In this document: positions 36,077 through 63,949 of the stretch, in pieces
Position numbering within the stretch: position 1 is the first letter of the stretch
Layout of the letters: each line of letters starts with the position of its first letter
Source: Ferruginibacter sp.
GTDB lineage: Bacteria > Bacteroidota > Bacteroidia > Chitinophagales > Chitinophagaceae
Reading direction: 5' to 3'
DNA: 64,000 bases
Assembly (NCBI GenBank): GCA_965247085.1
Contig: OZ251999.1
Location: 4,608,859-4,672,858 of the forward strand
The notes under the pieces: generated by a model
Databases searched by the model: none
The model's input: only the letters and a program-made list of their open reading frames with translations
What the model was told of the DNA's origin: nothing
Translations under genes and position numbers: made by a program

Positions 36077-36631
36077 TCATCTTGCATACACACCATTTGG
36101 GCTCACCACACTTGCAGGCCCTCCGGTAATGCCTACTGGCGGTATAATAATATTGATGGCTTCCCCATTAATTTTCAACGATACTTTTCTTGCATGAATT
36201 TCTACCCCCTGCTGATAAAAGGGAGGCATAGCCGAAGGCTCACGGTTAATTAAGTAGGGATCAGTAAAATCGCTCATCTCTACTTCAAAAGTATACCCGG
36301 CCACCACGCATTTGCTTACCGCTTTATTGGCACTGATCTGAATATCGAAACTGGCATTTAAAACCGGTGCCTGTTCAAACGGAGTACCTGCAAAAATATT
36401 TGGCCCAAAATAGTTACCTACCGTTTCATCGGTACTTACAAAACCCATCACAGCAGGCATGGCTGCAGGATCGGGTTGCCATAATATCATACCGCTGGCA
36501 GCATTGCCCACCGGAGTATTTACCATACGGCCCAGGTGTACAATTACATTGGGCATTTGCAAATTGGGATCGGTTACTGCCACCAGGTCAATACCACCTT
36601 CCCAGCTCATCCATTTAGAAACGTTGGTCAT
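36077..36631 (-). CDS. Hypothetical protein (184 aa, no recognisable motif)
   Basis: A long ORF with coding-like composition, co-oriented with 35337..36020. I recognised no family. Confidence 0.45.
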   Translation of the reverse strand: MTNVSKWMSWEGGIDLVAVTDPNLQMPNVIVHLGRMVNTPVGNAASGMILWQPDPAAMPAVMGFVSTDETVGNYFGPNIFAGTPFEQAPVLNASFDIQISANKAVSKCVVAGYTFEVEMSDFTDPYLINREPSAMPPFYQQGVEIHARKVSLKINGEAINIIIPPVGITGGPASVVSPNGVYAR

Positions 36632-36692: not shown

Positions 36693-36710
36693 ATACCCTC
36701 TGCAGGGTAT
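36693..36710. promoter_or_regulatory. 18-nt palindrome ATACCCTCTGCAGGGTAT (7-2-7 heptamer pair TACCCTC/TACCCTG)
   Basis: A perfect ATACCCT/AGGGTAT inverted repeat lies in the divergent intergenic region upstream of the Y_Y_Y kinase gene. Confidence 0.4.
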
Positions 36711-36785
36711 TTATTAATAATACACCCCTGCGATATTTTGAAAACCCTATTAATGCCACTGCAAAAATTATAAACATTATCTTTA

Positions 36786-39773
36786 ATGACCTCAATCATA
36801 AAAACTATAAATAAAAATATCAGCGGCTGTATGAAAATTGTATTAAATGCTATTTTTTTGTTTATTGGCCTGCTGGCTTTTACTGCAGGCTTTTGCCAGG
36901 CCGGCGATTCTGTATCTGTAATTACTACCAAACAGGGCCTGAGTATAAATTCTGTTAATGATATTATGTTTGACAGGGAAGGATTTTTATGGGCAGCCAC
37001 ATCGGATGGATTGCAACGATATGATGGGTACAGCTTTAAAACATTTAAAAAAAAATTATCGGATCCGGCCAGCCTTGGTGAAAACACCTGCCGGCATTTG
37101 TTTGAAGATGCCAATAGAAACATATGGGTAGGGCATAATGCAGTTGTTTCAGTAAAAAGAAAAAGCGATGGCCGGTTTACCACTATAAAAATAAATAACT
37201 TTTATACTGCCTTAAAACCTTTTGCAGAAGACAGTGCCTGTGTATGGATCGCAGGGGAAGATCATTTTTTTATTGTAAATAAAAACACATTCAAAGTTGA
37301 ACATGATTTTACATTCTCTAATAATGTTTTTCCCGATTCACTTACAGCCTTTATAGCCCGGTCGCCGGTTAAAAACTGCGGCATTTTTAATTACTTTTTA
37401 AAAGCAAATGCAATTGCTTTTAAAAAGTATCATCTTACAGATGACGTCACAAACGGGGCAGAGAAAAATATATATACACTGTTTAATTTTTTTTCTGGCA
37501 GTGCAAATCCTACAGTTAGCCAGGATGGAAAAATATATACAGTTACTGCTTCTGCAAGACTTTCATTATTTGAATATGTTTTACTCATTAACAATAAAGG
37601 ATTTTGTATCTATAATACCAAAACAGCCCGTCTGCAAAAACACCCGCTGTCTGATTTAATTGAAAAAAATATTGATTACAGACTGGTAACCGGTATGGTG
37701 CTGGATGCCGGAAAAAATATTTGGTTTTCGCAATCGGGTAAGGGAGGAATTGTTTGCATAAAAAATGTGAAACATCCGTTCAGAACATTTATTAAAAGTA
37801 ATAAAGATGTACTGATATACGGGCTGCAAAATGACCGGGATAATAATATATATGTTTCAGCCTACAGAAAATTTATCAACGCATATAATGAAAAGGGGCA
37901 ATTTTTTAAAACCTTCAACTCACCTGTTTTAGAAACGACCCCGGGCAGTAATGTACCCAATACGATACGGGCCTTAAAAATGATTAACAGTAAAGAATTT
38001 CTGCTACTAAGTACAAGTGGCCAGGCCTTACTGTTAAATAGTAAAACATCATCGGTTAAAGATATTACCGGCAATATTCCTGTATCTAAAAAGGTAGTGA
38101 ATGATTTTTTTGATCTTCAGATATTTCAGCTGGATAGTAATACTTTTATCTTTAACCATTTTAATCAGCTGGTCAAACTAACTGTAAAAAATACCACATT
38201 CAATTTAGAAACAGTTTGCAAAATAGCAGCAGAACAAAACATTACATCTTTTTATCCCCTGAACAATAATCGCTGGTTATTGGGTACCACCAATGGCTTA
38301 TTTACAAGTACACCCGAAAATTGTATTCTTTTAAAATCAACATCGGGGATACATGTAAAATATATTGCTAAAGACCAACCCGGCAGATTTTGGGTGGCAA
38401 CAGAGGCGGGCATTTTTATTATAAAAGATGGTACACTTATTAAAACATTAACTGAGCAAAATGAACTTTCCAGCAGCTTTATTTATGGAATTTTATTTGA
38501 TAAAAAAAACCGGGCCTGGTGCAGCAGTAATAAAGGATTGATGCGGATAGACAGCTCATTTAATGTTAAAGCATTTACCCAATCAAACGGCTTACTGAAT
38601 GACGAGTTTAACACGAATGGTTTTTTAGCGCACCCCAACGGCAATTTTTATTTTGCCGGTTTAGAAGGGATTGACTACTTTAACCCTGATGAATTTGAAG
38701 AAGATAGCAGCATTTCTGCAATTCACCTGGCAGATGTAAAAGTAAATTATGCCAACTATGCCTTTACCAAAAATGCTGATGGATCCATTTCACTTTCTAC
38801 AACTTTTGACAAGAATAATCTTTCCTTTTCCTTTTCGGTAATGGATTTTTATAATCCTTCAGTTAATCAGTTCAGCTATTATTTAAAAGGGTACCAATCC
38901 GAATGGTCGCTGCCCACAAATAATAATGAGGTGAATTACATTTTACCTCCCGGGGAATACACCTTATTGGTAAAAGGTGCCAATCATAACGGCGTTTGGA
39001 TTTCCACTCCCCTGGTAATTAAAATTTCTATCGTACCGGCATGGTATCAAACGGCTGGGTTTAAGTGGGGGCTGGGTTTTGCCGGCATATTACTAATTGG
39101 AACTGCTTTGTATTATGTAAGCAAAATAAAATACCGGAGAAAATTAGCCGTACTTAAAATGCAGCAACAGGTACAGGAAGAAAAAGAACGGATAAGCCGC
39201 GATTTGCACGATAACCTGGGCTCTCAAATGGCGCTACTTTCTAATAATGTAGAAAACCTGGAAATTAATTTTAAAAAACATCAGCATATAGATGATAGCC
39301 TAGAAAAAGTAAAAGGTACATCAAAGCAATTGCTGCAAACCTTACGCGAGGCTATCTGGATTCTGAACAAAGAACAGGTAACTGCACAGGATTTTTTTGA
39401 CAAACTGATTGATTATGCACAGCGTTACCTGCAATCCTGTCCGGGTGTACAGTTGCGGGTAACAGAGGATTTTTCATTTCAAAAAATACTTAATTCCAAT
39501 GAGGCCTTACAGCTATTTCGTATTTGCCAGGAGGCAATAGCAAATGCCTGTAAGTATGCTGAAAGCACCGTATTGCAGCTGGAAGGAAAAACGGAGCAAA
39601 ATAATTTTGAAATTATTATTCAGGACTTTGGGAAAGGCTTTGATATGGATAACATACATGGCGAAGGGCATTATGGATTAAAGAATATACAGCAAAGGGC
39701 AAAGTCTGTTAACGCAAGGTTACTGGTACATACAGCAGCAGGAAAGGGTACCAGGGTGGCAATAAAAATATAG
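36786..39773 (+). CDS. Sensor histidine kinase with periplasmic two-component-regulator propeller / Y_Y_Y region and HisKA_3 core
   Basis: Repeated ...D..G.LW..T..GL..YDG motifs (DREGFLWAATSDGLQRYDGYSF). A late TM is FKWGLGFAGILLIGTALYYV. The H-box is ERISRDLHDNLGSQ and the HATPase motifs are IANACKYA and QDFGKGF. The true start may be MKIVLNAIF at 36831. Confidence 0.85.
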   Translation: MTSIIKTINKNISGCMKIVLNAIFLFIGLLAFTAGFCQAGDSVSVITTKQGLSINSVNDIMFDREGFLWAATSDGLQRYDGYSFKTFKKKLSDPASLGENTCRHLFEDANRNIWVGHNAVVSVKRKSDGRFTTIKINNFYTALKPFAEDSACVWIAGEDHFFIVNKNTFKVEHDFTFSNNVFPDSLTAFIARSPVKNCGIFNYFLKANAIAFKKYHLTDDVTNGAEKNIYTLFNFFSGSANPTVSQDGKIYTVTASARLSLFEYVLLINNKGFCIYNTKTARLQKHPLSDLIEKNIDYRLVTGMVLDAGKNIWFSQSGKGGIVCIKNVKHPFRTFIKSNKDVLIYGLQNDRDNNIYVSAYRKFINAYNEKGQFFKTFNSPVLETTPGSNVPNTIRALKMINSKEFLLLSTSGQALLLNSKTSSVKDITGNIPVSKKVVNDFFDLQIFQLDSNTFIFNHFNQLVKLTVKNTTFNLETVCKIAAEQNITSFYPLNNNRWLLGTTNGLFTSTPENCILLKSTSGIHVKYIAKDQPGRFWVATEAGIFIIKDGTLIKTLTEQNELSSSFIYGILFDKKNRAWCSSNKGLMRIDSSFNVKAFTQSNGLLNDEFNTNGFLAHPNGNFYFAGLEGIDYFNPDEFEEDSSISAIHLADVKVNYANYAFTKNADGSISLSTTFDKNNLSFSFSVMDFYNPSVNQFSYYLKGYQSEWSLPTNNNEVNYILPPGEYTLLVKGANHNGVWISTPLVIKISIVPAWYQTAGFKWGLGFAGILLIGTALYYVSKIKYRRKLAVLKMQQQVQEEKERISRDLHDNLGSQMALLSNNVENLEINFKKHQHIDDSLEKVKGTSKQLLQTLREAIWILNKEQVTAQDFFDKLIDYAQRYLQSCPGVQLRVTEDFSFQKILNSNEALQLFRICQEAIANACKYAESTVLQLEGKTEQNNFEIIIQDFGKGFDMDNIHGEGHYGLKNIQQRAKSVNARLLVHTAAGKGTRVAIKI

Positions 39774-39789
39774 TGGTTTAAACAGGGAA

Positions 39790-39807
39790 ATACCATACAG
39801 AGGGTAT
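39790..39807. promoter_or_regulatory. 18-nt palindrome-like site ATACCATACAGAGGGTAT
   Basis: Same length and ATACC...GGTAT ends as 36693..36710, located 35 nt upstream of the response-regulator ATG. Confidence 0.4.
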
Positions 39808-39841
39808 AGATAAGTATAAATTATTTTTTAACTTTTGTACC

Positions 39842-40507
39842 ATGCATATTGCAATTGTAGATGATAAACCATATTTGCGGCAGTCGCTTAAAGAAAAACT
39901 GGCATCCATTGAAAATGATGTTACTGTTATTATGGAAGCAGGAGACGGTGCTGATTTTCTAAAAAAAATGAAAGCCACCCAGCAAAAGCCGGATGTGGTA
40001 CTGATGGATATTGAAATGAATGAACTGAATGGTATTGAAACTGTACAACGTGCCGCACCACTTTTTCCAGCCGTAAAGTTTATTATGCTTACTGTGTTTG
40101 ATGATGATGAAAGAATTTTTAACGCTATTAAAGCAGGCGCACACGGCTATTTATTAAAAGAAGCCACTGCGCAAAATATTATTGATGCCATTTACCAGGT
40201 ATACCAGGATGAGGGGGCACCTATGAGCCCGGGGATTGCCCGTAAAGCATGGAAATGGTTAACGTCATTTACAACTCCGCCAGCTACAGATAAAGCGGTT
40301 CCAAAAAATGATTTTGAACCCCTCAGCGAAAGAGAGAAGGAAATATTAAAATGCAATATGGAAGGCAAAGAGTATACTCAAATTGCCGACGAGCTTTTTT
40401 TAAGCAAACACACTGTGCGCCAGCACATGAAAAATATTTACCGCAAACTGCATGTAAACAGCAAGGTGGAAGCACTGCAAATCAGCCTGAAAAATAAGTG
40501 GATCTGA
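39842..40507 (+). CDS. NarL/FixJ-family response regulator
   Basis: REC domain (VLMDIEMNELNG) plus a LuxR HTH (LSEREKEILKCNMEGKEYTQIADELFLSKHTVRQHMKNIYRKL). Confidence 0.9.
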   Translation: MHIAIVDDKPYLRQSLKEKLASIENDVTVIMEAGDGADFLKKMKATQQKPDVVLMDIEMNELNGIETVQRAAPLFPAVKFIMLTVFDDDERIFNAIKAGAHGYLLKEATAQNIIDAIYQVYQDEGAPMSPGIARKAWKWLTSFTTPPATDKAVPKNDFEPLSEREKEILKCNMEGKEYTQIADELFLSKHTVRQHMKNIYRKLHVNSKVEALQISLKNKWI

Positions 40508-40557
40508 AATTTTTGATGGAGTATACACAGGCCCTGTTGAAGGCCTTTTTTAATAAT

Positions 40558-40575
40558 ATGCCTCACAGGGGGTAT
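40558..40575. promoter_or_regulatory. Degenerate copy of the 18-nt site, ATGCCTCACAGGGGGTAT
   Basis: Same length and right half-site, located 50 nt upstream of 40625. Confidence 0.3.
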
Positions 40576-40624
40576 TGCCACTCAGGTTGAGTAACAAGAT
40601 ATTTACTGAATAAAATCAGTACAT

Positions 40625-40984
40625 ATGACTAATCATACTGTTATTGCAGTTAATCCGCTACATCAAACACCTGAATCTGCAGCCGATTATTCTTCCCTGC
40701 TGCTTTTGCCTTTTGCTGCAATTGCAGCGCATCATTTTACAAAAAAACAACTTCGAAAGGCAAAAAATAAAATAATGTGGCAGTTAATGAAACTGAAGCT
40801 GAAAGCAATGTTTTCTTTTAAAGGAAAAAAAGAGATGTCGCTGCAATTTAAAGTTTTTTTGATTGCCATTTTGATTGGTGCAGCCTTTGGAATACTATTG
40901 AGTTTTACTGCGGGATTATTTGCTTTTGTACTTGCCCTGTTAACCGCTGTAGTTATTCTTTTTATAAAAGCCGACCGGGTTTAA
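40625..40984 (+). CDS. Small membrane protein, paralog 1
   Basis: 119 aa. It shares SSLLLL..AA(I/V)AAH..(T/S)KKQLRKAKNK(I/M).WQL.K...K..FSF and two C-terminal TM segments with 41209..41562. Confidence 0.55.
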   Translation: MTNHTVIAVNPLHQTPESAADYSSLLLLPFAAIAAHHFTKKQLRKAKNKIMWQLMKLKLKAMFSFKGKKEMSLQFKVFLIAILIGAAFGILLSFTAGLFAFVLALLTAVVILFIKADRV

Positions 40985-41144
40985 ATTGATTTCCATTGAT
41001 ATTTAAATTGTTTGCAGAAGTATAGTGTCTTTCATTTAATTTATTGAACAGCTGGTTTGAAATACAATATCCTTTCAATCGCTTGTTTGTGATGTGAAAT
41101 ACTTCATGCAGTTTCGGCTTGCCGTGCTTTTATTAACAACAAAA

Positions 41145-41162
41145 ATACCTTACAGAGGGTAT
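41145..41162. promoter_or_regulatory. 18-nt palindrome-like site ATACCTTACAGAGGGTAT
   Basis: Located 47 nt upstream of 41209. Its right half is identical to the site at 39790. Confidence 0.4.
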
Positions 41163-41208
41163 GGTATGGCATAACAATAAAATGGATTTTTATACCTAAA
41201 CATATACA

Positions 41209-41568: not shown

Positions 41569-43626
41569 TTGAGATATTTAAAAACTGATATGAAAAGAAT
41601 AATATTCATTACAGCGTACCTTTTCATTTGCTTTACATCAGGGGCACAAGATGTTACAAAAGATAAGATTGTTGCCAGTGTATATGCTATTTTAATGGAT
41701 GCCCCCAACAATTTTACAAATTTCAGGGGGATAAATTTAAATACTGATACTGATGGAAACATTACCTGCAAAATAAAAAAACCAGTTTTTGCAAATGGTA
41801 ATTTGTTTTCTCAAACAATTAAGTATTGGAAAAAAACCAATAATAGCTGGCTTACACTTGAATCAGACGATGAAGCAGGGGAAAATAATTTCAGGACAGT
41901 AGAATTAGCTTTGGATTTGTTAGCTGATAAAAATATTTTCATAAAAAGAGAAAGTACATTAGGGGCAACAACTGTTATAAAGTATGTTGACAGCAGCTAT
42001 AATGAAATAGCTTCTTTGTGGTATAAGTCATCTTTGCGCTATATGATTTATTTTAAGTCGGGTACCAGCATTCAGTATCAATTGCAAAAGTATTTGGCCT
42101 CCAAAAAAAATAGTACACAAAGCAGAGAGCCAGTTGCAAAAAAAAATTATACAGAAGCCAGAGAGCCCTCGGTAAAGGCAAATGAAAATATGACTGCAAT
42201 TGTTTTGCTAAACGATTATTTTCTTTTTTATCAAAACCTAACCAACACAAGCGATTTGGGCTTTGATTGGATTTTTGACACAAGGGATCCGGCAGCTTTA
42301 GAAATTAAACTAACTTATATAAATATACTCTCTTCTATCAGGAATCAGTTACCCTATAGTATAACAGACGATTTATATGATGCAACAACTATTATCAGTA
42401 TTGATGGAATTCCAACAGCAAAAATGACCAGGCAGCAAGCCGTTGATTTGCTGAAGGGAACACCCGGTACCAACTGCACAATAGGTTTAAAATTTAAAAC
42501 GGCTGCAAAAGATGAATTGCACACCATTGTGCTAAAAAGAGAATCTGGTTCCGGTATATTGGCAGAACAGGAACATTATGCAAAAGGAATTGAAAATTTT
42601 AAAAAGGGGCAATTTGAAAAAGCAATAAGTGATTTTAAATTAATTCAATATTACCCCGAAGCACAAATAATGCTTTGGAAAATATACAGTGGCAGAATTC
42701 TGGATGAAATATCATTTGCAAATAATGGTATTCTACTTAAAGGCCAATTAAAAAGATATTTTAATCAGGATAGTTTAAGTAAATACAGTTTTCCAACAAG
42801 CTCTAATCCCCAGCTATTGGAACTCAAAGCGCTGTATTGTAATGAGTACAAATTTAATACAGCAGGTATTACCAGTGCTAAAAACAGCTTAAACAAACTG
42901 GCTGCCGATAAAGGTGATGTTTTTAGTCAGGAATATATGGTGCGCTTACATACTTCGCATTATGACACTGATGCAAGTTTTATATCCAAAAATATATTGC
43001 CCGATAAAGAACAAGCCTGGTACTGGTATAAAAGAGCTGTTGCCGGCGGATCAAAAACTGGGCCGCAGATGTTGAGCAATATAAATAAGATGAAAACTGA
43101 AAAGGACGTGTATGGGGTAAATTTTAATGGCTATGTGTTTGATTTTAAAGATGCCAAAGCAGTAAGCACCGTGGCACATATGCAAAATGGCCTTACAAAA
43201 ATACTGCCACCCGGTATTTGCCCTTTTGGTGTAAAGGGTTTTGAAAGTGGAATACTGTTACATACATCAAGGGGAATAGGCTTTAAATGGACTACTCATG
43301 TTATGCAGGACTATGCATTTGCAAACAAACATTACGAATATGCTTTGCAGTCGTTTATGGATAATTTCCCCAGGTATGATTTTAAAGATATCCAATGGAT
43401 GAATGTTCAGGTAAATGATCGTTATCTGAAAGCTAAAGTTGCCCATTTTACTGCTACAGAAACTGATGGTAAAAATTATATCATGAGTATGTCAATTGTG
43501 CTGGAAAAAGTATCAACGGGTTATCAAATTGTACTGGAGTATAAGGATATAGATAAAATTACAAAGGCAGTCATTGTTCCGAAGGTTGAAATAGATGAGG
43601 ATGACTGGGATGATGATAATGATTGA
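41569..43626 (+). CDS. Secreted multidomain protein with PDZ-like and Sel1/TPR-like segments, long form
   Basis: The signal peptide follows the likely start MKRIIFITAYLF at 41590. The PDZ-like block is IISIDGIPTAKMTRQQAVDLLKGTPGTNCTIGL. The Sel1-like block is DKEQAWYWYKRAVAGGS. The tail is acidic (EIDEDDWDDDND). It is a paralog of 47486..49051. Confidence 0.65.
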   Translation: MRYLKTDMKRIIFITAYLFICFTSGAQDVTKDKIVASVYAILMDAPNNFTNFRGINLNTDTDGNITCKIKKPVFANGNLFSQTIKYWKKTNNSWLTLESDDEAGENNFRTVELALDLLADKNIFIKRESTLGATTVIKYVDSSYNEIASLWYKSSLRYMIYFKSGTSIQYQLQKYLASKKNSTQSREPVAKKNYTEAREPSVKANENMTAIVLLNDYFLFYQNLTNTSDLGFDWIFDTRDPAALEIKLTYINILSSIRNQLPYSITDDLYDATTIISIDGIPTAKMTRQQAVDLLKGTPGTNCTIGLKFKTAAKDELHTIVLKRESGSGILAEQEHYAKGIENFKKGQFEKAISDFKLIQYYPEAQIMLWKIYSGRILDEISFANNGILLKGQLKRYFNQDSLSKYSFPTSSNPQLLELKALYCNEYKFNTAGITSAKNSLNKLAADKGDVFSQEYMVRLHTSHYDTDASFISKNILPDKEQAWYWYKRAVAGGSKTGPQMLSNINKMKTEKDVYGVNFNGYVFDFKDAKAVSTVAHMQNGLTKILPPGICPFGVKGFESGILLHTSRGIGFKWTTHVMQDYAFANKHYEYALQSFMDNFPRYDFKDIQWMNVQVNDRYLKAKVAHFTATETDGKNYIMSMSIVLEKVSTGYQIVLEYKDIDKITKAVIVPKVEIDEDDWDDDND

Positions 43627-43748
43627 GCTGGAAAAAATAAGATGATAAAACATTTCCAATAAATAGCTTAAAAAAGCATAACACAACAGTTTATTTTCAT
43701 GATGATTTTTTTGAATTTCTAAATCATTCTAAAAAAAATTACTTAAAT

Positions 43749-44387
43749 ATGAAACGTACTTCTTTTATTCTGGCACTTCTGTTAACTGCAAATTTCGCTT
43801 TTGCTCAAAAAAGTAATACAGCTGTTAAAATCATCGCAGGAGTTACCCTGCCCAAATTTAGTGTCAGCAGCAACAATACTGATAATAGAAAAATATACAT
43901 GGGCTATACAGCGGGTATATCATTAAACACGTATAAAAAAAGCAATGACGGAGTTGGGCTCATTTTAGGTGTAAATTATCTGCAAGCCGGTGCAATAAAC
44001 CCAAAACCAGCACTTGTTGGTGCTACTGAATCTAAAGAAAGACTTAACTATATCTCAGGAGATGCGATGCTGGGCTTTAAAATTGAATCGGCAATAAAGA
44101 TTGAAATATTTGGTGGCGGCTACATGGCTAAATTATTAAATGGGGATTATAATACCAGTATGGCAACAGGATCCAACCAGAAAGGCAGCTTTAAAATTGG
44201 CACTAAATCCACCGATGATTTTATAGCACTTGATCTGGGTTTTAAATTCGGAATGTGTTTTAATATAAAGAAAGTAAGTGTGGGTATTGTACTGCAACAG
44301 GGGTTAATGGATATCGACACGAAGTCCGATACAAAAATGCATAACCAGATATATGCATTCACACTTGGATACAGCTTCGGTAAATAA
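43749..44387 (+). CDS. Small outer-membrane beta-barrel protein, paralog 1
   Basis: Signal peptide ending AFAQ. It has the shared block LNYLQAGAINPKPALVGATESKERLNYI, alternating hydrophobic strands and a C-terminal aromatic-rich YSFGK. Confidence 0.65.
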   Translation: MKRTSFILALLLTANFAFAQKSNTAVKIIAGVTLPKFSVSSNNTDNRKIYMGYTAGISLNTYKKSNDGVGLILGVNYLQAGAINPKPALVGATESKERLNYISGDAMLGFKIESAIKIEIFGGGYMAKLLNGDYNTSMATGSNQKGSFKIGTKSTDDFIALDLGFKFGMCFNIKKVSVGIVLQQGLMDIDTKSDTKMHNQIYAFTLGYSFGK

Positions 44388-44401
44388 ATAAAAAAAGTTA
44401 A

Positions 44402-45037
44402 ATGAAAAAAATAATCCTAATCCCTGTTACACTGCTTATTACTGTATTTGTAATGGCACAAGACAGAACTTTCGACATTTCTCTTAATGCTGGAATTTCA
44501 ATGCCAACATACAGTTACAAGTACAATGGAGTTTCTTCCAGCAGAAGTATTTACCAGGGCTATACAGGAGGTGTATTTGTTGCATGGAACAGGGATGTAT
44601 CTTTTATAAGTATTGCACTTGGACTTAATTATTTACAAGCTGGTGCCATTAATAAAACCCCGGCAATTGCGAATGCAGTGGAATCCAAAAACAGGATCAA
44701 TCACTTTCAGGTAGAGGCCTATATTTTTAAATTTCAACCGGTAAAAGTATTAGAAATAAGAGGGGGTTTCTATTTTAATACAGCAATGAGCGGGATGGCA
44801 ACAATAAAACGGACCGACGGTACTGTTACTAAAACAGATTTTAAATTTGGCATAACAGAAGAGAATGATTTTCATAAAGGAGATATGGGACTTGCCATAA
44901 AATCATTTATTAATATTTCAAAATTAAAATTGAGTGCTGCATACCAAATGGGAATTGACAATATTTCGCCAAAAGTGCCCGAAGAAATAAAAAGTAAAAT
45001 ATTTACAGTTGGTATTGGATACAGATTAGGGAAATAA
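44402..45037 (+). CDS. Small outer-membrane beta-barrel protein, paralog 2
   Basis: Signal peptide ending VMAQ, shared block LNYLQAGAINKTPAIANAVESKNRINHF, and C-terminal IGYRLGK. Confidence 0.65.
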   Translation: MKKIILIPVTLLITVFVMAQDRTFDISLNAGISMPTYSYKYNGVSSSRSIYQGYTGGVFVAWNRDVSFISIALGLNYLQAGAINKTPAIANAVESKNRINHFQVEAYIFKFQPVKVLEIRGGFYFNTAMSGMATIKRTDGTVTKTDFKFGITEENDFHKGDMGLAIKSFINISKLKLSAAYQMGIDNISPKVPEEIKSKIFTVGIGYRLGK

Positions 45038-45053
45038 GATTAAAAACGTTTAC

Positions 45054-46163
45054 ATGAAAAAAACAATTGCCTTTTTAACAGTAGCTATAATTATTTCACA
45101 GCTAATATTTTCACAAACTATTGTTGTGGTGAATAAAGATTATAATCATCGTGATAAGTACGAAGCTGTATTACTTAATGCTGATGGAAAAGTATTAAGA
45201 ACAATGAATAAAATTAATAACGAGGATGTATCCAGTTTTTCAGAAGGTGTTTGGATATGTCGCGTTTCCAAAGATGAAAAGGATAATTTCTTTTTTTACT
45301 CTAATTTTTTAAATGAAAAAGGGGAAAAATTACTTGCCAACGATATTAAGGGGTTTGCATGGGGGTTTTCGGATGGCTGGTGTTTAATTACACATAAAGC
45401 TGATGATGGTTCGGAAACCTTTTATTATGCAGATAAAACAGGAAAGGAAGTTTTTAAACCAATCCCGAATGAATTGGGCAGTTTTTATAAGGGTGTAACC
45501 TGGAAAAAAGGACAACCCGGAACCGATGAAGAATATTTATATGGACTGATCAATAAAAAGGGTGACTGGATTTTAAAACCCACTTATTTTGAAATTAAGG
45601 ATTTTGAAAATGGAATGGCGCAGGTGATGACAGCCATGTCGTCAGCAGACCGTAGTTCATCTCAACAATATGCGTATATAGATACAAAAGGCAATGTTGT
45701 AAACCCTGTTCATTTTTCAAAAAAGCATGATAGATATGGCAGCTTTAGCGAAGGTGTCTGTATGGCAGGTACAAAAGTGGAAGTCAATTCGTTTAAAGAA
45801 AAAATTGAATTCACAGCTATTGACAGTACTGGAAAAGAGCTGTTTGCCAAAAAGTTTTATTCGTCTGAAATAGGAGAGCGCATACAACTGAAAAATATGG
45901 TTTTCAAGAATGGGTTATGCCCTACCTCAGATGGATATATTAATGCAAAAGGCGAAGTGGTCATTCAGTTTCCCGGGCAAATTATAGCAGATGCAACTTC
46001 ATTTGATAATGGATTGGCAAGTTTTAAAATGATACCCAAAAATGGCGATGGATTTAGTTTTAAATACACTGTGATCAACACAAAAGGAAAAATCATCTGG
46101 CAATCTGTGGAAAATAAATTATCAGATAAGTTTGAAATTAATAATCAGTATTTCGCAAACTAA
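45054..46163 (+). CDS. WG-repeat (KWG-like) secreted protein
   Basis: Signal peptide. Repeated G(L/Y)I(N/D).KG..V(I/L).P.(Y/F) units include YGLINKKGDWILKPTYFEIKDFENGMAQV, AYIDTKGNVVNPV and GYINAKGEVVIQF. Confidence 0.65.
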   Translation: MKKTIAFLTVAIIISQLIFSQTIVVVNKDYNHRDKYEAVLLNADGKVLRTMNKINNEDVSSFSEGVWICRVSKDEKDNFFFYSNFLNEKGEKLLANDIKGFAWGFSDGWCLITHKADDGSETFYYADKTGKEVFKPIPNELGSFYKGVTWKKGQPGTDEEYLYGLINKKGDWILKPTYFEIKDFENGMAQVMTAMSSADRSSSQQYAYIDTKGNVVNPVHFSKKHDRYGSFSEGVCMAGTKVEVNSFKEKIEFTAIDSTGKELFAKKFYSSEIGERIQLKNMVFKNGLCPTSDGYINAKGEVVIQFPGQIIADATSFDNGLASFKMIPKNGDGFSFKYTVINTKGKIIWQSVENKLSDKFEINNQYFAN

Positions 46164-46208
46164 AAGAATATTAAAATCAAAAAACCACTATTCATTTAAA
46201 ACTTTAAC

Positions 46209-46892
46209 GTGAAGAAAATCGCACTTATCTGCCCGTTTCTGCTAATAGCTATGTTTGCCAAAGCACAATCATCCACTTATGTGCCTTATGGTAAAACAAG
46301 GTTATATTCTCATGGCCTGTACGGTGGAATAACGCTGCCAAAGTACAAATATGGCCCGGTTATACATGATGTATACCAGGGTTTTAAACTGGGATATCAA
46401 TATAATTTATTCAGTGATGAAAAAGAGAGCAGAGGTCATGGGTATATTATTTCTTTAGCGTATATGCAAAAGGGAGCTAATAATAAACAGCCGGCAATCG
46501 GCAATGCAGTGGAAAGTAAAAACAGGTTAAATGCGTTGCAATTTGAACTGGCGCAAGCATTGGGGTTGAATAAAAATCATAAAACTGTCTTAATTAGTTT
46601 GTATGGGGGCATTTATGGTTCGTATTTTATTAACGGACAAAGTGATGTTTCTTATGTAAACGGAACTTCCATTTCCACAGCCTTTAAAATAGGTACTAAA
46701 ACCACCGATGATTTTAAACCATTTGATTTTGGGTTAAGATTTGGTTTACAAGTTGATATTAAAAAGATGTTTATAAGAACGGCTTATGAATTTGGACTTG
46801 TTGATTTAAACCCCGCCGGATCTGCCAATAGAATCAAATCAAGAGGAATTGAACTTTTAGCCGGAATTAATTTAAGTAAGGCCAAACATTAA
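46209..46892 (+). CDS. Small outer-membrane beta-barrel protein, paralog 3 (GTG start)
   Basis: Signal peptide ending AKAQ, shared block LAYMQKGANNKQPAIGNAVESKNRLNAL, and the FKIGTKTTDDFKPFDFGL block in common with paralog 1. Confidence 0.65.
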   Translation: MKKIALICPFLLIAMFAKAQSSTYVPYGKTRLYSHGLYGGITLPKYKYGPVIHDVYQGFKLGYQYNLFSDEKESRGHGYIISLAYMQKGANNKQPAIGNAVESKNRLNALQFELAQALGLNKNHKTVLISLYGGIYGSYFINGQSDVSYVNGTSISTAFKIGTKTTDDFKPFDFGLRFGLQVDIKKMFIRTAYEFGLVDLNPAGSANRIKSRGIELLAGINLSKAKH

Positions 46893-46973
46893 AGCCGGTA
46901 TCAAATGACAAATATTTAATCCTCCAATGCAGGCGGATAAAGTATCACGAAAAATAAAAACTAAAAAATAAGT

Positions 46974-47489
46974 ATGAAAAAAATAGCGGCAATAATAACG
47001 ATAATCGCATGCAGCATTTCAGTAAAAGCTCAGACTGCTGCTCAGGCTGCAAGTAGTTTTAAACTGCTGCTGACAGAAGCAGTGTCTGATTTTAAAAACG
47101 TAAAAGACACCATACTTGAGGAGGATCCCGGGAGAAAAACTGCTTATTATAGTTGTACTAAAACATTGGGCTCTTCATTTGAAGCAATTTGTATCAACTC
47201 CGGAGATAACACAACTTATTTTATTTCAAAATTTGAATTTGTAAAAACAGCTGAATTAATTAAGGCCAATGAGATACTGCCGGCGATTTTGGGTGAGGTA
47301 AATGCCATGGTAAAATCCGGAAAGTACAAAGGAAGAGATTATAAAAAAGAAGGGAATATTGACATAACGGAGTTAAAGGATTTAAATGGCAATTATATTG
47401 TTGAAATAGAATCCAGAAATGAAGCTGTCAGCAGCGACAAAAATTACATGGCTATTATCATTTATGGTAAGAGCTGGGGAACCAAATGA
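46974..47489 (+). CDS. Secreted hypothetical protein resembling the N-terminal module of 41569..43626
   Basis: Signal peptide ending VKAQ. It has a 4-nt ATGA overlap with the next gene. FKLLLTEAVSDFKNVKD parallels VYAILMDAPNNFTNFRG in the long-form protein. Confidence 0.5.
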   Translation: MKKIAAIITIIACSISVKAQTAAQAASSFKLLLTEAVSDFKNVKDTILEEDPGRKTAYYSCTKTLGSSFEAICINSGDNTTYFISKFEFVKTAELIKANEILPAILGEVNAMVKSGKYKGRDYKKEGNIDITELKDLNGNYIVEIESRNEAVSSDKNYMAIIIYGKSWGTK

Positions 47490-49051
47490 TTAATAATTTA
47501 ATTAAACCGGATATGAAAAAATTTGCATTTTTTATTACAGCAGGTATTTTAAGTCAATACCTCTTTGCTGTTCCAGAATTTAAAGCAGCTCCACCAATAA
47601 AGCCTGACAGTAAGATATCGTTTAATAAAAACTTTCTTTATTATACCAGTCTTATTAATACCAGCGATTTGGGGTTTGACTGGATTTTTGACACTAAAAA
47701 TCCTGATTCGCTGGAAATTGAAATTCTTTACCGGTATGACAAAGGGCCACTTTCGAAAAGGCTTATTGAATTGAAGAAAAATTACGGGGTATCAAATATT
47801 ATTGCAATTGATGGAGTATCTACTGCAAAAATGAGCAGAGAACAGGCCATCAATTTATTGAAAGGAAATGCAGGCAGCACCTGTACGCTGGTATTTAATC
47901 ATTTTGCCAAACCAGTTTACGGAGCTGTAATTGGAGCAAACAGTATATACAACTATGAAACAATACAGGTAACGAGAGAAGCACAACCAAATTTAGAAAA
48001 AAAGCTGTTGCATGACAAAGGAATGGAGGAGCTAAAGGATGGAAATATTGAACAGGCTATTTATTTCTTTAAGCCAAATGCAACAGTTGGCTGGGGTTAT
48101 TATGACGAATCATTACTAATGATGCTGAAACTATTCAGCGGCGATATCTTAAATGACCTTGATTTTTCCGGTAAGGATGGTGCGATAATAAAGAAAAAAT
48201 TTCAATCCTACAGTAATATAGATTCTCTGAAAAAATACAATATGTATACTTTGTTTGGCAGGGGATATCCCAGGATTACTGCTTTACTATCAAAGTATAC
48301 AAAAGAGCTATCTTCTCCGGTGGCGTATAAAAATTTACAGCTTCCCGAACCTGATTATATGATGTTGGCAGGTGCTGCCTATGCCGGAGATGTTGAAGCT
48401 CAGGAAAAAATGGTAGACTTTCATACCCTTACTAATAATGATATAATATACCTGTTGCCGGATAAAGAACAGGCGACTTATTGGTTTAAAAGAGCGGTGT
48501 TGGGCGGATCGGGAAAGGAAGTGGATATGAAAGAAAAAATCAGTAAGAGTAATTTTAGCTATGACAGTACCAATAGTAAATTTATTGAGCTCTTTTCTTT
48601 TAAAGAGTTACAATCAATGATGGCAGTAGCTCACATGTATCCGGATTTAAATAAAATTTTCACCAAAAATATGTGCCCTTTCGCAATCAGGGGCTTTGAA
48701 GCTGCTAAAGGTACCGGACAGGATTCACTTGCGATGGGTTACGAATGGCAAACGCATGTTATTAAAAATAAAAATGCCGCTACCCAGGTATACAATAGTA
48801 TTTACTTAAAATTCATGAAAGAGTTTTCCGCAAACACTTTTCCGGATATAAAATGGTATGTTATTCCGGATAATTATTTTAAGAGTTTCTCCTATCCTGC
48901 TTTGTATTCCCCGGATCTGCAGCTGGCAAATGTTATGGCTGATTTCACTGTAAAGGAAAAAGACGGACAATTATATAAAATGAGAATGCTGCTTATTATT
49001 TGGGATCGAAAAAGCGGGTATCAAATAGCAGTAAGATACATGAAAGGTTAA
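47486..49051 (+). CDS. PDZ-like / Sel1-like protein, short form
   Basis: NTSDLGFDWIFDTKNPDSLEIEI, IIAIDGVSTAKMSREQAINLLKGNAGSTCTLVF, DKEQATYWFKRAVLGGS and VAHMYPDLNKIF..MCPFAIRGFE are all colinear with 41569..43626. The start may be MKKFAFFITAG at 47513. Confidence 0.65.
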   Translation: MINNLIKPDMKKFAFFITAGILSQYLFAVPEFKAAPPIKPDSKISFNKNFLYYTSLINTSDLGFDWIFDTKNPDSLEIEILYRYDKGPLSKRLIELKKNYGVSNIIAIDGVSTAKMSREQAINLLKGNAGSTCTLVFNHFAKPVYGAVIGANSIYNYETIQVTREAQPNLEKKLLHDKGMEELKDGNIEQAIYFFKPNATVGWGYYDESLLMMLKLFSGDILNDLDFSGKDGAIIKKKFQSYSNIDSLKKYNMYTLFGRGYPRITALLSKYTKELSSPVAYKNLQLPEPDYMMLAGAAYAGDVEAQEKMVDFHTLTNNDIIYLLPDKEQATYWFKRAVLGGSGKEVDMKEKISKSNFSYDSTNSKFIELFSFKELQSMMAVAHMYPDLNKIFTKNMCPFAIRGFEAAKGTGQDSLAMGYEWQTHVIKNKNAATQVYNSIYLKFMKEFSANTFPDIKWYVIPDNYFKSFSYPALYSPDLQLANVMADFTVKEKDGQLYKMRMLLIIWDRKSGYQIAVRYMKG

Positions 49052-49098
49052 TGCGCTCATATTTTACTGCACATTAAAAGCAGCCACTAAAATAAAAA

Positions 49099-49449
49099 AT
49101 GATGACAACACTGTATGTAAGAACAATTTTATTGATGGGTATGATTTTGTGGTTAAGTTTTGGGTATACACAGGAGACTAAAGGGGTAAAAATTATACCA
49201 GTAGATTCTCTGAAGAAATACCATATCGGTATTGCAAAAAAAGACAGCAATAAAATACAATTGGCAAAAACCGGTTTTGTGCCATGGAGTAAAATGAGTG
49301 TGGCAGAAAAGGGAGAATATATTGTTAAAACAATCATCAACGACTACAGAGTAAAGTACCCCATTTTATTTTGGCTGCTGGTGGTAATAGTATCGGCATG
49401 GATCTTTAAACAGGTGCTAAAAATAATTGATAAAATAAAAAGTAATTAA
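49099..49449 (+). CDS. Small bitopic membrane protein (hypothetical)
   Basis: 116 aa with hydrophobic N- and C-terminal segments, tightly packed before the TPR gene. Confidence 0.4.
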   Translation: MMTTLYVRTILLMGMILWLSFGYTQETKGVKIIPVDSLKKYHIGIAKKDSNKIQLAKTGFVPWSKMSVAEKGEYIVKTIINDYRVKYPILFWLLVVIVSAWIFKQVLKIIDKIKSN

Positions 49450-49450
49450 A

Positions 49451-50332
49451 ATGACAAAACAATTGGTAGCGATGAAGTTTGTTTTATTGGCTGTTTTCAG
49501 CATATTATTATCGGGTGTTTCGGAGGCACAGGTAACAAAAAAGCCAGTGCCGGCAGTACGCAAAACAGTGACTGTTGAGCAGCTGAAAACACAAATCAAT
49601 AATGCGTATTCAAAGGGAGATTTTGCTAAAACTATTATATTATGTAATCAATTACTGCCCCGAACACCTAACGATACAGACAATACCGTAACTAAGATAT
49701 TGTGTAAAACAAAACTGAAAAAGCATAAAGAGGCCATCGGCGACATAAAAAAATTCTATAAAGAAAATTCGGCCGAATTTCTGGCATTATTTCCCGCAGA
49801 TATATACGCTGCCGAATTTAATGAACGCATGTCTTTTGATGAAAGAGAACAATATTATGCAGCATCTATACAACTAAGCCCGGGAAATGCACGAGTATAT
49901 TTTAAGCAAGCCTACGATTATGCTGATGATGACAATTGTATAAAGGCAATTGAACTAGCTCAAAAAGGATATTCATTAATAACGGATGAAACTGTTTCTT
50001 ATACCAGGTCTTATATTTATATGCAAAAAATATGTGGCAACAGAGATACTGCATGGGCTGTGTTAAATGCCTATGCGAATAAATATCCCGACGATTTAAA
50101 TGCCAAGGCAATGAAAGCAACTTTTTTAACGGAGGATAAAAAATTTACAGAGGCTTTGACTTTCATAAATGAAGTTATTGCAGCAAAGCCAGAGAATAAA
50201 GATTTTTATATGGCAAGAGCCGGCATTTATTTTAAAATGGATGATAAGGTTGCAGCTTGTAAAGAAGCGAAATTTATTAAGGATAAATTCAATGATGACA
50301 GAGGGCTGGCAGAGTTTAATTGTACAGAATAG
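49451..50332 (+). CDS. TPR-repeat secreted protein
   Basis: Signal peptide ending SEAQ, followed by several ~34-aa A/Y/L-patterned helical repeats (e.g. ARVYFKQAYDYADDDNCIKAIELAQKG). Confidence 0.6.
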   Translation: MTKQLVAMKFVLLAVFSILLSGVSEAQVTKKPVPAVRKTVTVEQLKTQINNAYSKGDFAKTIILCNQLLPRTPNDTDNTVTKILCKTKLKKHKEAIGDIKKFYKENSAEFLALFPADIYAAEFNERMSFDEREQYYAASIQLSPGNARVYFKQAYDYADDDNCIKAIELAQKGYSLITDETVSYTRSYIYMQKICGNRDTAWAVLNAYANKYPDDLNAKAMKATFLTEDKKFTEALTFINEVIAAKPENKDFYMARAGIYFKMDDKVAACKEAKFIKDKFNDDRGLAEFNCTE

Positions 50333-50405
50333 TATTTTAAATCAGTAATTCAGTATGGAATAGATAGGTATAGCTATTTGCGTACATACTCTAACTATTT
50401 TTTGC

Positions 50406-51461
50406 GTGCTGCAGGTAAAACCACAATTTATGCGCCATGTATCTCTATTTGTTATTGGCTTATTGTTACAGTTATTAGCAGTAAGTAATGCAGCTATGCC
50501 CGGAATTTGGCAAACAGGTTTTGGAGGCCGTTTTTTACCATTAATTGCTGCAGACAGTAATAATTACGGAAAAATTCAAATGCAGTCTGAACAGGTGTTG
50601 ATAGATCTGTATAATGGCTTTAGTGTGGTAAAGGGTACGTATTATATGTATAATGCGCAGGATACTGCTGTGGAAATGTTCACCGGCTATCCGCAGCATG
50701 GCGATTACAATCAGGATATAGTCAGGAATATCATCATTGGTGATGCTCCTTTTAATTTGAAAGTGCTGGTTAATGGTGCAGCAGTTGCCTGTGCTGCTTA
50801 TAATGATAGTGCAATGTCTGCCAATAGTTTGAGTACCACAACAGTTCCGGTAATACATGGCAGCAGAAATTATCAAACCTGGTTTTTATGGAAAATGAAG
50901 TTTGCCCCCAAAAAAATTACCACCATCACAGTATATTTTTTAACCAATAACAGTAAAGCTAAATTGAGTCATGGGTACAGCAAATCAACCGGCCATGCAT
51001 TTGGTTATGTATTGGAAAGTGGTAAAGCATGGGGTGGAAATATAGATACGGGGAATATTTTTATACGACTGATGGATGGTATTACATTGAAAAATATTGC
51101 AGGCATACTGCCCGATTCAACCATAAAGGCGGCAAACGGAAAACTGGTATATAGTTTCATCAACAAAGATCCTTCACCGGCAGATAATTTATTAATATGG
51201 TATAATAAGGAAATGGATAGTATTGCCTTTCATCTAAATGTGCTGCCCCAAACCAACATTTATTTTGAAACCATTAATAGTTTTCCTGTAAATGATTTTG
51301 CAAACAGTAGTACATGGAAAACCATTAGCCTGACTGATTTTGAGCCAAAAGATAGCGGGATGGGTACATTTTTTATTGCTGTATTAGTTGGAGGGGTATT
51401 ACTGGCAGGCCTTGTAATCTGGCTTTTGGTAAAAGTTGTAATGCGGGGCTTTAAAAAATAA
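50406..51461 (+). CDS. Hypothetical exported protein with C-terminal TM anchor
   Basis: The N-terminal hydrophobic segment is VSLFVIGLLLQLLAVSNA and the C-terminal TM is FFIAVLVGGVLLAGLVIWLLV. The start is uncertain (GTG at 50406 or ATG at 50430). Confidence 0.5.
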   Translation: MLQVKPQFMRHVSLFVIGLLLQLLAVSNAAMPGIWQTGFGGRFLPLIAADSNNYGKIQMQSEQVLIDLYNGFSVVKGTYYMYNAQDTAVEMFTGYPQHGDYNQDIVRNIIIGDAPFNLKVLVNGAAVACAAYNDSAMSANSLSTTTVPVIHGSRNYQTWFLWKMKFAPKKITTITVYFLTNNSKAKLSHGYSKSTGHAFGYVLESGKAWGGNIDTGNIFIRLMDGITLKNIAGILPDSTIKAANGKLVYSFINKDPSPADNLLIWYNKEMDSIAFHLNVLPQTNIYFETINSFPVNDFANSSTWKTISLTDFEPKDSGMGTFFIAVLVGGVLLAGLVIWLLVKVVMRGFKK

Positions 51462-63931: not shown

Positions 63932-63949
63932 ATACCGTACACAGGGTAT
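63932..63949. promoter_or_regulatory. Further copy of the 18-nt site, ATACCGTACACAGGGTAT
   Basis: Same length and ATACC...GGGTAT ends, immediately after the methyltransferase stop at the right edge of the window. Confidence 0.3.

Follow-up and report, generated by a model that had tools for sequence, protein, structure and literature searches.

The window, that is, the whole 64,000-nucleotide stretch of Ferruginibacter sp. DNA analyzed in this study (assembly GCA_965247085.1, contig OZ251999.1), is part of a single 5.18-Mb contig of 41.4% G+C. The genome is labelled G000 here, and its nearest named relatives are a Ferruginibacter metagenome-assembled genome (MAG) and Chitinophagaceae MAGs. 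The window harbors a two-component system composed of a sensor histidine kinase and a response regulator of the NarL/FixJ family, flanked by a divergent gene for a conserved 184-aa protein (p184) and by two paralogous genes for small membrane proteins (smp1 and smp2), and the palindrome ATACC-N8-GGTAT recurs in the spacers between these genes (Table 1). An earlier note on this DNA had described four such 18-mers, at 36693, 39790, 40558 and 41145, as operators of the regulator. All four were found at these positions, and the distances it gave to the start codons of the regulator, smp1 and smp2 were also correct, as were those of the first site to the two possible kinase starts (75 nt to the ATG at 36786 and 120 nt to 36831). 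The start at 36831 is the likelier one because an 83%-identical ortholog aligns from residue 2 and because a signal-peptide-like segment begins there.

Table 1. Genes, sites and predicted promoter elements at the two-component locus and at the end of the window
Feature	Position (strand)	Sequence or family	Context
p184, conserved 184-aa protein	36077..36631 (-)		conserved target of site 1
Site 1	36693..36710	ATACCCTCTGCAGGGTAT; minus-strand reading ATACCCTGCAGAGGGTAT	near-perfect palindrome between the divergent p184 gene and the kinase gene
Sensor histidine kinase	36831..39773 (+), alternative start 36786	Reg_prop, Y_Y_Y, HisKA_3, HATPase_c (Pfam)	
Site 2	39788..39809 (+), core 39790-39807	core ATACCATACAGAGGGTAT, conserved flanks	34 nt before the regulator start
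Predicted -7 box of the regulator promoter	39830..39837 (+)	AACTTTTG	ACTTTTG block in the alignment, T block in 63 sites
Response regulator	39842..40507 (+)	NarL/FixJ family, receiver (REC) and GerE helix-turn-helix (HTH) domains (Pfam, NCBIfam)	
Terminator-like hairpin	40529..40546 (+)	AGGCCCTGTTGAAGGCCT and T run	between the regulator stop and site 3; kept in the Ferruginibacter MAG
Site 3	40556..40577 (+), core 40558-40575	core ATGCCTCACAGGGGGTAT, then TG	49 nt before smp1
smp1, small membrane protein, 119 aa	40625..40984 (+)		
Site 4	41143..41164 (+), core 41145-41162	core ATACCTTACAGAGGGTAT	46 nt before smp2; 26.9 bits with the independent matrix
smp2, paralogous small membrane protein, 117 aa	41209..41562 (+)		
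Ten co-directional exported-protein genes	41590..51461 (+)	PDZ-like, outer-membrane beta-barrels, WG-repeat, TPR	gaps of at most 122 nt
Candidate site 5	63932..63949 (+)	ATACCGTACACAGGGTAT	51 nt before a 476-aa TPR gene starting at window position 64001

The regulator and its kinase

The regulator belongs to the NarL/FixJ family by domain architecture (Pfam Response_reg, E 2.6e-22; Pfam GerE, E 2.3e-18) and is not a NarL ortholog. It stayed below every NCBIfam equivalog cut-off, reaching 122.1 vs 250 bits for NarL (NF007935). The protein aligned with the structures of NarL and VraR, the latter being the best structural sequence match (E 1.4e-32), and its GerE domain aligned with the DNA-binding domains of LiaR, VraR, GerE and NarL. 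HMMER placed D56, in the segment 'vvlmDiem', on the aspartate of NarL 'lillDlnm', which we take to be the phospho-acceptor D59. Moreover, the recognition helix LSKHTVRQHMKNIYRKL (TVRQHMKN; LSKHTVRQHMKNIYRKLHV) was both unique among the approximately 45 GerE-type proteins of the genome and invariant in three aligned orthologs.

A kinase with HisKA_3 and HATPase_c domains lies directly upstream of the regulator, and this order was the same in all ortholog loci. The kinase of the window scored far below the nitrate sensors (62.6 bits against a NarQ cut-off of 553, and 44 bits against a NarX cut-off of 578). The Y_Y_Y sensor was present only in this genome and in the Ferruginibacter MAG (L033; L078 is apparently the same organism). 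The kinase of 15 or more further ortholog loci is instead a 572-aa protein with a signal peptide and a TPR sensor, in which the same kinase core is approximately 50-62% identical, and this core is all that the kinase of the window has in common with the TPR-sensor kinases (for example, L034:154-1872). This amounts to a sensor swap: regulator, kinase core and operator stay the same, the sensor is of the Reg_prop/Y_Y_Y type in the window, and most relatives have an exported TPR sensor in its place. The "Y_Y_Y kinase regulon" of the earlier note proved too narrow a term. Our search of the literature on Y_Y_Y, HisKA_3 and LuxR systems found nothing on this system.

Genome-wide specificity of the sites

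With one mismatch allowed, ATACC-N8-GGTAT occurred 12 times in the window, compared with 1.87 +/- 1.40 times in shuffled sequences; chance does not explain the sites. A rough gene map of the genome comprised 4,473 genes and was 90.4% coding and 9.6% non-coding. Scanned against this map, a matrix built from the sites gave six matches of at least 24 bits, all of them intergenic (P about 8e-7) and 34-61 nt ahead of start codons. The next match, at 19.5 bits, was inside a gene, as were nearly all matches below 24 bits. Such a scan had been suggested in the earlier note as a check on the operators, and the strong matches were indeed intergenic and not equally frequent in genes.

When the matrix was built from the four original 18-mers as written, the sites at 63932 (site 5) and at genome position 1064040 (site 6) ranked directly behind the training sites; simulated genomes also yielded 0-3 matches of 20 bits or more, so that these two, taken alone, carry less weight. 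Site 6 lies 36 nt before a gene for a 503-aa protein (p503) that received no family assignment from Pfam or NCBIfam, and a homolog of the TPR gene behind site 5 was found in locus L089, 5 kb downstream of the regulator. A second, independent matrix of 22 nt was trained solely on 57 sites of other genomes, and the four original sites were the top four of the genome in its ranking (32.4 bits at site 3, the best of all; 31.6 at site 2; 26.9 at site 4; and 23.8). The membership of sites 5 and 6 in this set is less certain. Two weak intergenic matches to the independent matrix were seen at genome positions 4134740 (+) and 519464 (-), with 17.2 and 16.9 bits; they lie 46-53 nt before a gene for an exported 478-aa thioredoxin-like protein and a gene for a 194-aa lipoprotein-like protein, and they may be weak regulon members.

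Co-occurrence of the sites with regulator orthologs

A metagenome scan recovered 23 loci with orthologs of the regulator (66-91% identity) and approximately 56 loci with paralogs (identity of at most 47%). Matches of at least 17 bits numbered 54 in 171 kb of the ortholog loci vs 2 in 368 kb of the paralog loci, a 58-fold difference with a Poisson P of about 1e-74 at the paralog rate; this P value overstates the significance, since related loci cannot be counted as independent. In each of the 20 metagenomic loci whose sequence reaches upstream of the regulator, a site lies 33-34 nt ahead of its start codon, and together with G000, L033, G183 and G358 this amounts to approximately 24 of 24. In most of the 20, a second site followed 12-73 nt past the regulator stop, and a third was located upstream of the kinase in the loci reaching that region. 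The Ferruginibacter MAG, with a kinase 83% and a regulator 91% identical, carries one site 34 nt ahead of the regulator, another ahead of an smp homolog and a third ahead of a 110-aa gene. Furthermore, in G183 and G358, which represent another genus (regulator 79% identical) and are the only two of 400 family genomes with a regulator ortholog, a site precedes the regulator by 33 nt and others stand ahead of downstream genes, one of which in G183 is a p184 homolog.

The spacer between kinase and regulator was compared in a three-way alignment, and its conserved islands were the site and an ACTTTTG block just 5' of the ATG. Regulator homologs of 42-54% identity have another recognition helix (TVRKHVSH or TVKKHC) and no such sites: at the 29 loci of regulator homologs of at most 54% identity in 150 family genomes, the motif was absent except for one weak match. 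The proposed autoregulation and control of the two small membrane proteins are thus well supported by sequence comparison, namely by the ortholog co-occurrence, the recognition helix and a TAC...GTA span as long as that of NarL 7-2-7 sites.

Refined motif and promoter geometry

Alignment of 63 non-redundant sites gave the consensus AAATRCCnYACAGRGGGTATTG. The 18-nt palindromes described in the earlier note are real and conserved, and the underlying motif is asymmetric and extends to approximately 22 nt, the promoter-proximal half GRGGGTAT being stronger than the distal half ATRCCnY. The flanks were conserved as well (A at -1 in 55 of 63 and at 0 in 59 of 63; T at +19 in 52 of 63; G at +20 in 46 of 63), which constitutes independent evidence because they lie outside the search matrix. 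The heptamers TACCnnn and TACCCT(C/G) of the earlier note apply to three of its four sites, and the site at 40558 reads TGCCTCA and TACCCCC. The NarL heptamer consensus is TACYYMT; the proximal half TACCCYC fits its TACYY and not its last two positions, and the distal half is TRCCnYA. The 7-2-7 geometry proposed earlier was retained in the form TACCnYA-CA-GRGGGTA, in which the 2-bp "spacer" is a conserved CA and the TAC...GTA span is 16 bp in all sites, equal to that of NarL, whose 7-2-7 operators consist of two inverted 7-bp elements 2 bp apart (PMC10853779, PMC7419079).

Downstream of the site, a T block occupies +25 to +28 (T in 44, 49, 60 and 58 of the 63 sites), and 36 of the 63 have their best match to TAnnTTTG beginning at +22 or +23. 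A TTG made up of the final base of the site and the next two lies 19 nt upstream of this box, which is the canonical -33/-7 spacing. TAnnTTTG is the -7 box of Bacteroidota sigma-A promoters and occupies -12 to -5 in Flavobacterium (PMC9723704). On this basis, the site is predicted to extend from approximately -52/-51 to -35/-34, with its centre near -42.5 to -43.5. Single 7-2-7 sites of NarL are centred at -43.5 in yeaR and at -44.5 in ogt1052 (PMC10853779, PMC7419079), and a centre near -43, as at the NarL-activated yeaR, suggests activation. For the regulator gene itself, the -7 box of Table 1 would put transcription initiation at the A of the ATG (39842) or at a neighboring base, so that a leaderless transcript is predicted; a start fixed at the ATG in this manner would explain the invariant gap of 33-34 nt. 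The other predicted starts, each to within about 2 nt, are at about 36660 on the minus strand for p184, about 40610 for smp1 and about 41197 for smp2. Leaderless mRNAs make up approximately 5.5% of the mRNAs of F. psychrophilum (PMC9723704).

The same geometry bears on the direction of control. NarL-family members can also repress, and activation is recorded in RegulonDB for 11 of the 26 regions under direct NarL control (PMC7419079), so the regulator might bind its sites and exert negative autoregulation together with repression of the small membrane proteins. This is a rather improbable reading, since the sites lie upstream of the predicted core promoter and only abut it, at a fixed distance of 22-23 nt from the -7 box, and their predicted position corresponds to the class-II-like activator position of yeaR and ogt. 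In addition, most site promoters of the genome are without a good -33 TTG, as would be expected if they were activator-dependent.

The palindromes could in principle also be RNA hairpins, terminators or a repeat element without a regulatory role. A terminator scan did flag site 1 as a hairpin with T-rich sequence behind it, and site 5 begins 2 nt past a stop codon. Nevertheless, site 1 stands between two divergent gene starts, sites 2-4 form stems of 5 bp at most, the loop sequence is conserved rather than co-varying, every strong site is intergenic and ahead of a gene start, and the fixed distance to the -7 box puts all sites upstream of the predicted transcript starts. The hairpin or terminator reading was consequently rejected on the position of site 1, the short stems, the conserved loop and the -7 box geometry, and it can be given hardly any credence.

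Genes downstream of the regulator

Most ortholog loci have an equivalent of site 3 behind the regulator gene, and smp1 homologs follow the regulator, each with a preceding site, in L033/L078, L080, L082 and L093. Neither smp1 nor smp2 received a family assignment from Pfam or NCBIfam. The ten exported-protein genes behind smp2 are possibly co-transcribed from the site-4 promoter, as their common direction and short gaps suggest, and no additional strong site was found within this island (41590-51461) in either matrix scan. In other genomes, the genes downstream of the regulator encode small membrane proteins, exported TPR and WG-repeat proteins and small outer-membrane barrels, often each with its own site, and the island of the window holds genes of these same types. 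By analogy, these kinds of target genes allow the guess that the system has an envelope-related role.

Site 1, p184 and the kinase promoter

Site 1 had been presented in the earlier note as the operator of the kinase gene, an assignment that the comparison did not bear out: the gap to p184 is conserved, the gap to the kinase is variable, and the orientation of the core is variable as well. A p184 homolog (79-93% identical) was found divergent from the kinase, with the site between them, in seven metagenomic loci, and farther upstream, with other DNA between, in L086 (86%) and L089 (77%). The gap from site to p184 was 57-62 nt in eight metagenomic loci and is 61 nt here, and in every one of those loci a TAnnTTT(A/C/G)-like box was present at +21 to +23 on the p184 side; in this genome the -7-like box TATATTTT lies 21 nt off on that side. 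Site 1 was therefore assigned to the p184 promoter. The gap to the kinase, by comparison, varied from 72 to 123 nt, and several kinases seem to have a conserved promoter block of their own further downstream. The Ferruginibacter MAG showed no site within 150 nt before its kinase, where the contig ends. On the kinase side of the window, the -7-like sequence GATATTTTG is at about the right distance from site 1, so control of the kinase gene by this site is possible and gains no support from conserved geometry.

Against the consensus, site 1 scored 27.5 bits on the minus strand and 14.3 bits on the plus strand. A strict orientation of site 1 towards p184 was considered and withdrawn, as orthologous loci have both orientations, and L087 and L098 carry an identical 18-mer in opposite directions. 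Site 1 shares its half-sites with the other sites and, in this genome, is probably read by the regulator.

The p184 protein has no Pfam or NCBIfam match and has 896 homologs, the best 120 of which are 80-91% identical. Its AF2 model (pLDDT 80.1) is beta-rich, and a comparison with the PDB returned no significant fold match, the best being acetoacetate-decarboxylase-like (E 1.2e-3, TM 0.33). In some genera (L072 = G183:C320, and L179-L183), p184 homologs are longer at the N-terminus by approximately 50 residues, an extension that begins signal-peptide-like in G183 and is absent from the p184 of the window. In L162, p184 is located inside a phenylacetate (paa) oxygenase cluster, beside a TetR gene.

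A wider class of palindromes and a second reader

The outer half-sites are not confined to genomes with the regulator. Among 400 family genomes, p184 was found in 21 (17 at an identity of at least 61%) and the regulator in two only. The exact palindrome occurs 55-73 nt before p184 in G065, G151, G375, G299, G357, G363 (of the same genus as the window), G084 and G076, and a palindrome with one mismatch in G083, G362 and G055; even p184 homologs of only 38-41% identity have it. Three p184 homologs on long contigs, with no adjoining two-component system, likewise have ATACC-N8-GGTAT 45-56 nt before the start and a -7 box at +22/+23, and the genome of one of them, GCA_016722465.1, lacks any homolog of the regulator above 45% identity. 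Nearly all p184 copies examined carry the palindrome 45-73 nt before the start, with or without the two-component system.

Several observations weigh against the regulator as the reader of the sites. ATACC-N8-GGTAT precedes p184 orthologs in at least eight genomes without a regulator ortholog, and in five regulator-less relatives the exact palindrome outnumbered its reversed control by a factor of 2 to 5 or more (20/0, 9/5, 15/5, 17/4 and 18/4). In the genome of the window, intergenic DNA contains 14 of the 33 exact copies (P about 8e-7); 12 copies are promoter-positioned, and several lack the ACAG core. One core-less copy is found 62 nt upstream of the gene for a paralogous TPR-HisKA_3 kinase (295103..296905), beside which there is no regulator gene. 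With the independent matrix, sites 6 and 5 reached only 20.4 and 17.3 bits, amid the best in-gene noise, and a comparable site accompanies a p503 homolog in a regulator-less genome. The orientation of the site-1 core, towards p184 or towards the kinase, varies by locus. In addition, K188, V189 and K192, the base contacts of helix alpha9 in NarL (PMC10853779), align to R193, Q194 and K197 in the regulator.

These data raise the alternative that another, family-wide factor reads every ATACC-N8-GGTAT site and that the regulator is merely one of its targets. This factor would account for the palindromes ahead of p184 and for their enrichment in the regulator-less relatives, as well as for the spacing-specific enrichment in the promoters of this genome, where only N8 is enriched intergenically and the intergenic copies with spacers of 5-7 or 9-11 nt number 0-3. 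Against it, the sites near the regulator share a Y-ACAG-R core and flanks that are largely missing in regulator-less genomes, and core-bearing matches are 58 times denser in ortholog than in paralog loci. Moreover, every ortholog locus has a site at one and the same distance ahead of the regulator gene, and the conserved neighborhood encodes no other DNA-binding protein. As an explanation of all the sites, a family-wide factor is accordingly considered unlikely.

The palindromes before p184 in regulator-less genomes nevertheless imply that these half-sites must have a second reader, and what is specific to the loci of this regulator appears to be the core and the flanks, not the outer half-sites. 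It is plausible, as a tentative proposal, that two regulators share a half-site code: an older family-wide factor recognizing the generic palindrome, with p184 as a near-universal target, and the lineage-specific regulator requiring the Y-ACAG-R core, whose sub-regulon, comprising its own gene, the small membrane proteins and the exported-protein island, would be layered on that of the first and would meet it at the p184 promoter. A search for a second reader in palindrome clusters beside a regulator gene in regulator-less genomes led to a four-site cluster in G363 that holds no regulator. This cluster (L188, G363:C2:906000-924000), in a congener without the regulator, comprises four palindromes in 9.4 kb, two of them promoter-positioned before exported-protein genes. 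Core-less promoter-positioned palindromes of the genome of the window were observed at 94692, 295023, 501200, 3428578, 4106254, 4279266 and 5101586. Another recurrent 18-mer, ATACCCTGC(A/T)GCGGGTAT, was followed in other family genomes and set aside, as it had no common neighbor gene and several copies were inside long open frames.

Discussion

In this study, the sites before the regulator gene, smp1 and smp2 are interpreted as probable operators of the response regulator, with a probability of roughly 0.72; the main limit on this confidence is that the outer half-sites are shared with at least one other reader. According to this interpretation, the phosphorylated regulator would bind as a dimer to an imperfect inverted repeat of 18-20 bp, which would abut the -33 TTG of sigma-A promoters and be centred near -42.5 to -43.5. 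From this position the regulator is predicted to activate, rather than repress, its own gene, expressed from a putative leaderless transcript, and both small membrane-protein genes, and it would probably activate the exported-protein island behind smp2 as well. What was observed directly are the sites, how well they are conserved, that they occur together with the regulator and that their distance to promoter-like elements is fixed; the binding and the transcript starts are, like the activation, predictions from comparative sequence analysis.

These findings supply a testable operator, a promoter architecture and a minimal regulon for a two-component system of the Chitinophagaceae, a family with almost no mapped transcription-factor sites so far. 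They also suggest that the class-II-like activator position near -43 has been retained relative to the Bacteroidota -33/-7 promoter. Furthermore, they tie the widespread p184 family to a defined regulatory signal and thereby provide a handle on the conditions of its expression.

The circuit is of the ordinary autoregulated response-regulator kind, with unusually good support in this case, and it resembles known systems in different respects. As with the 7-2-7 operators of NarL and NarP in E. coli, a dimeric NarL/FixJ-family regulator is predicted to bind a 16-bp TAC...GTA span with half-sites starting TACC(C), and, as at yeaR and ogt1052, the site would abut the upstream promoter element with a predicted centre near -43. 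This resemblance is one of geometry and not of orthology: the regulator scores 122 bits against a 250-bit cut-off and would have R193, Q194 and K197 as base contacts, the spacer and the inner heptamer positions (CA, ACAG) are conserved and the halves unequal, the promoter is of the Bacteroidota -33/-7 type, and the partner is a Y_Y_Y or TPR kinase instead of NarX or NarQ.

The Firmicutes systems LiaFSR and VraSR share with the present one a HisKA_3 kinase paired with a NarL-type regulator, VraR being its best structural sequence match, and also positive autoregulation, which is predicted here, and small membrane and envelope proteins as main targets. They differ in their operator and in their intramembrane-sensing kinase, in place of which an extracytoplasmic sensor of approximately 750 aa is present here, and no LiaF-like gene was detected in the locus with Pfam and NCBIfam. 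A link to envelope stress, as in LiaFSR and VraSR, would be an analogy from the kinds of target genes only. Lastly, the periplasmic Reg_prop/Y_Y_Y beta-propeller sensor is reminiscent of the hybrid two-component systems of Bacteroides. Unlike in those hybrids, the sensor is fused to a HisKA_3 kinase with no receiver or AraC output, acts beside a separate NarL-type regulator and is replaceable, its place being taken by a TPR sensor in most orthologous loci.

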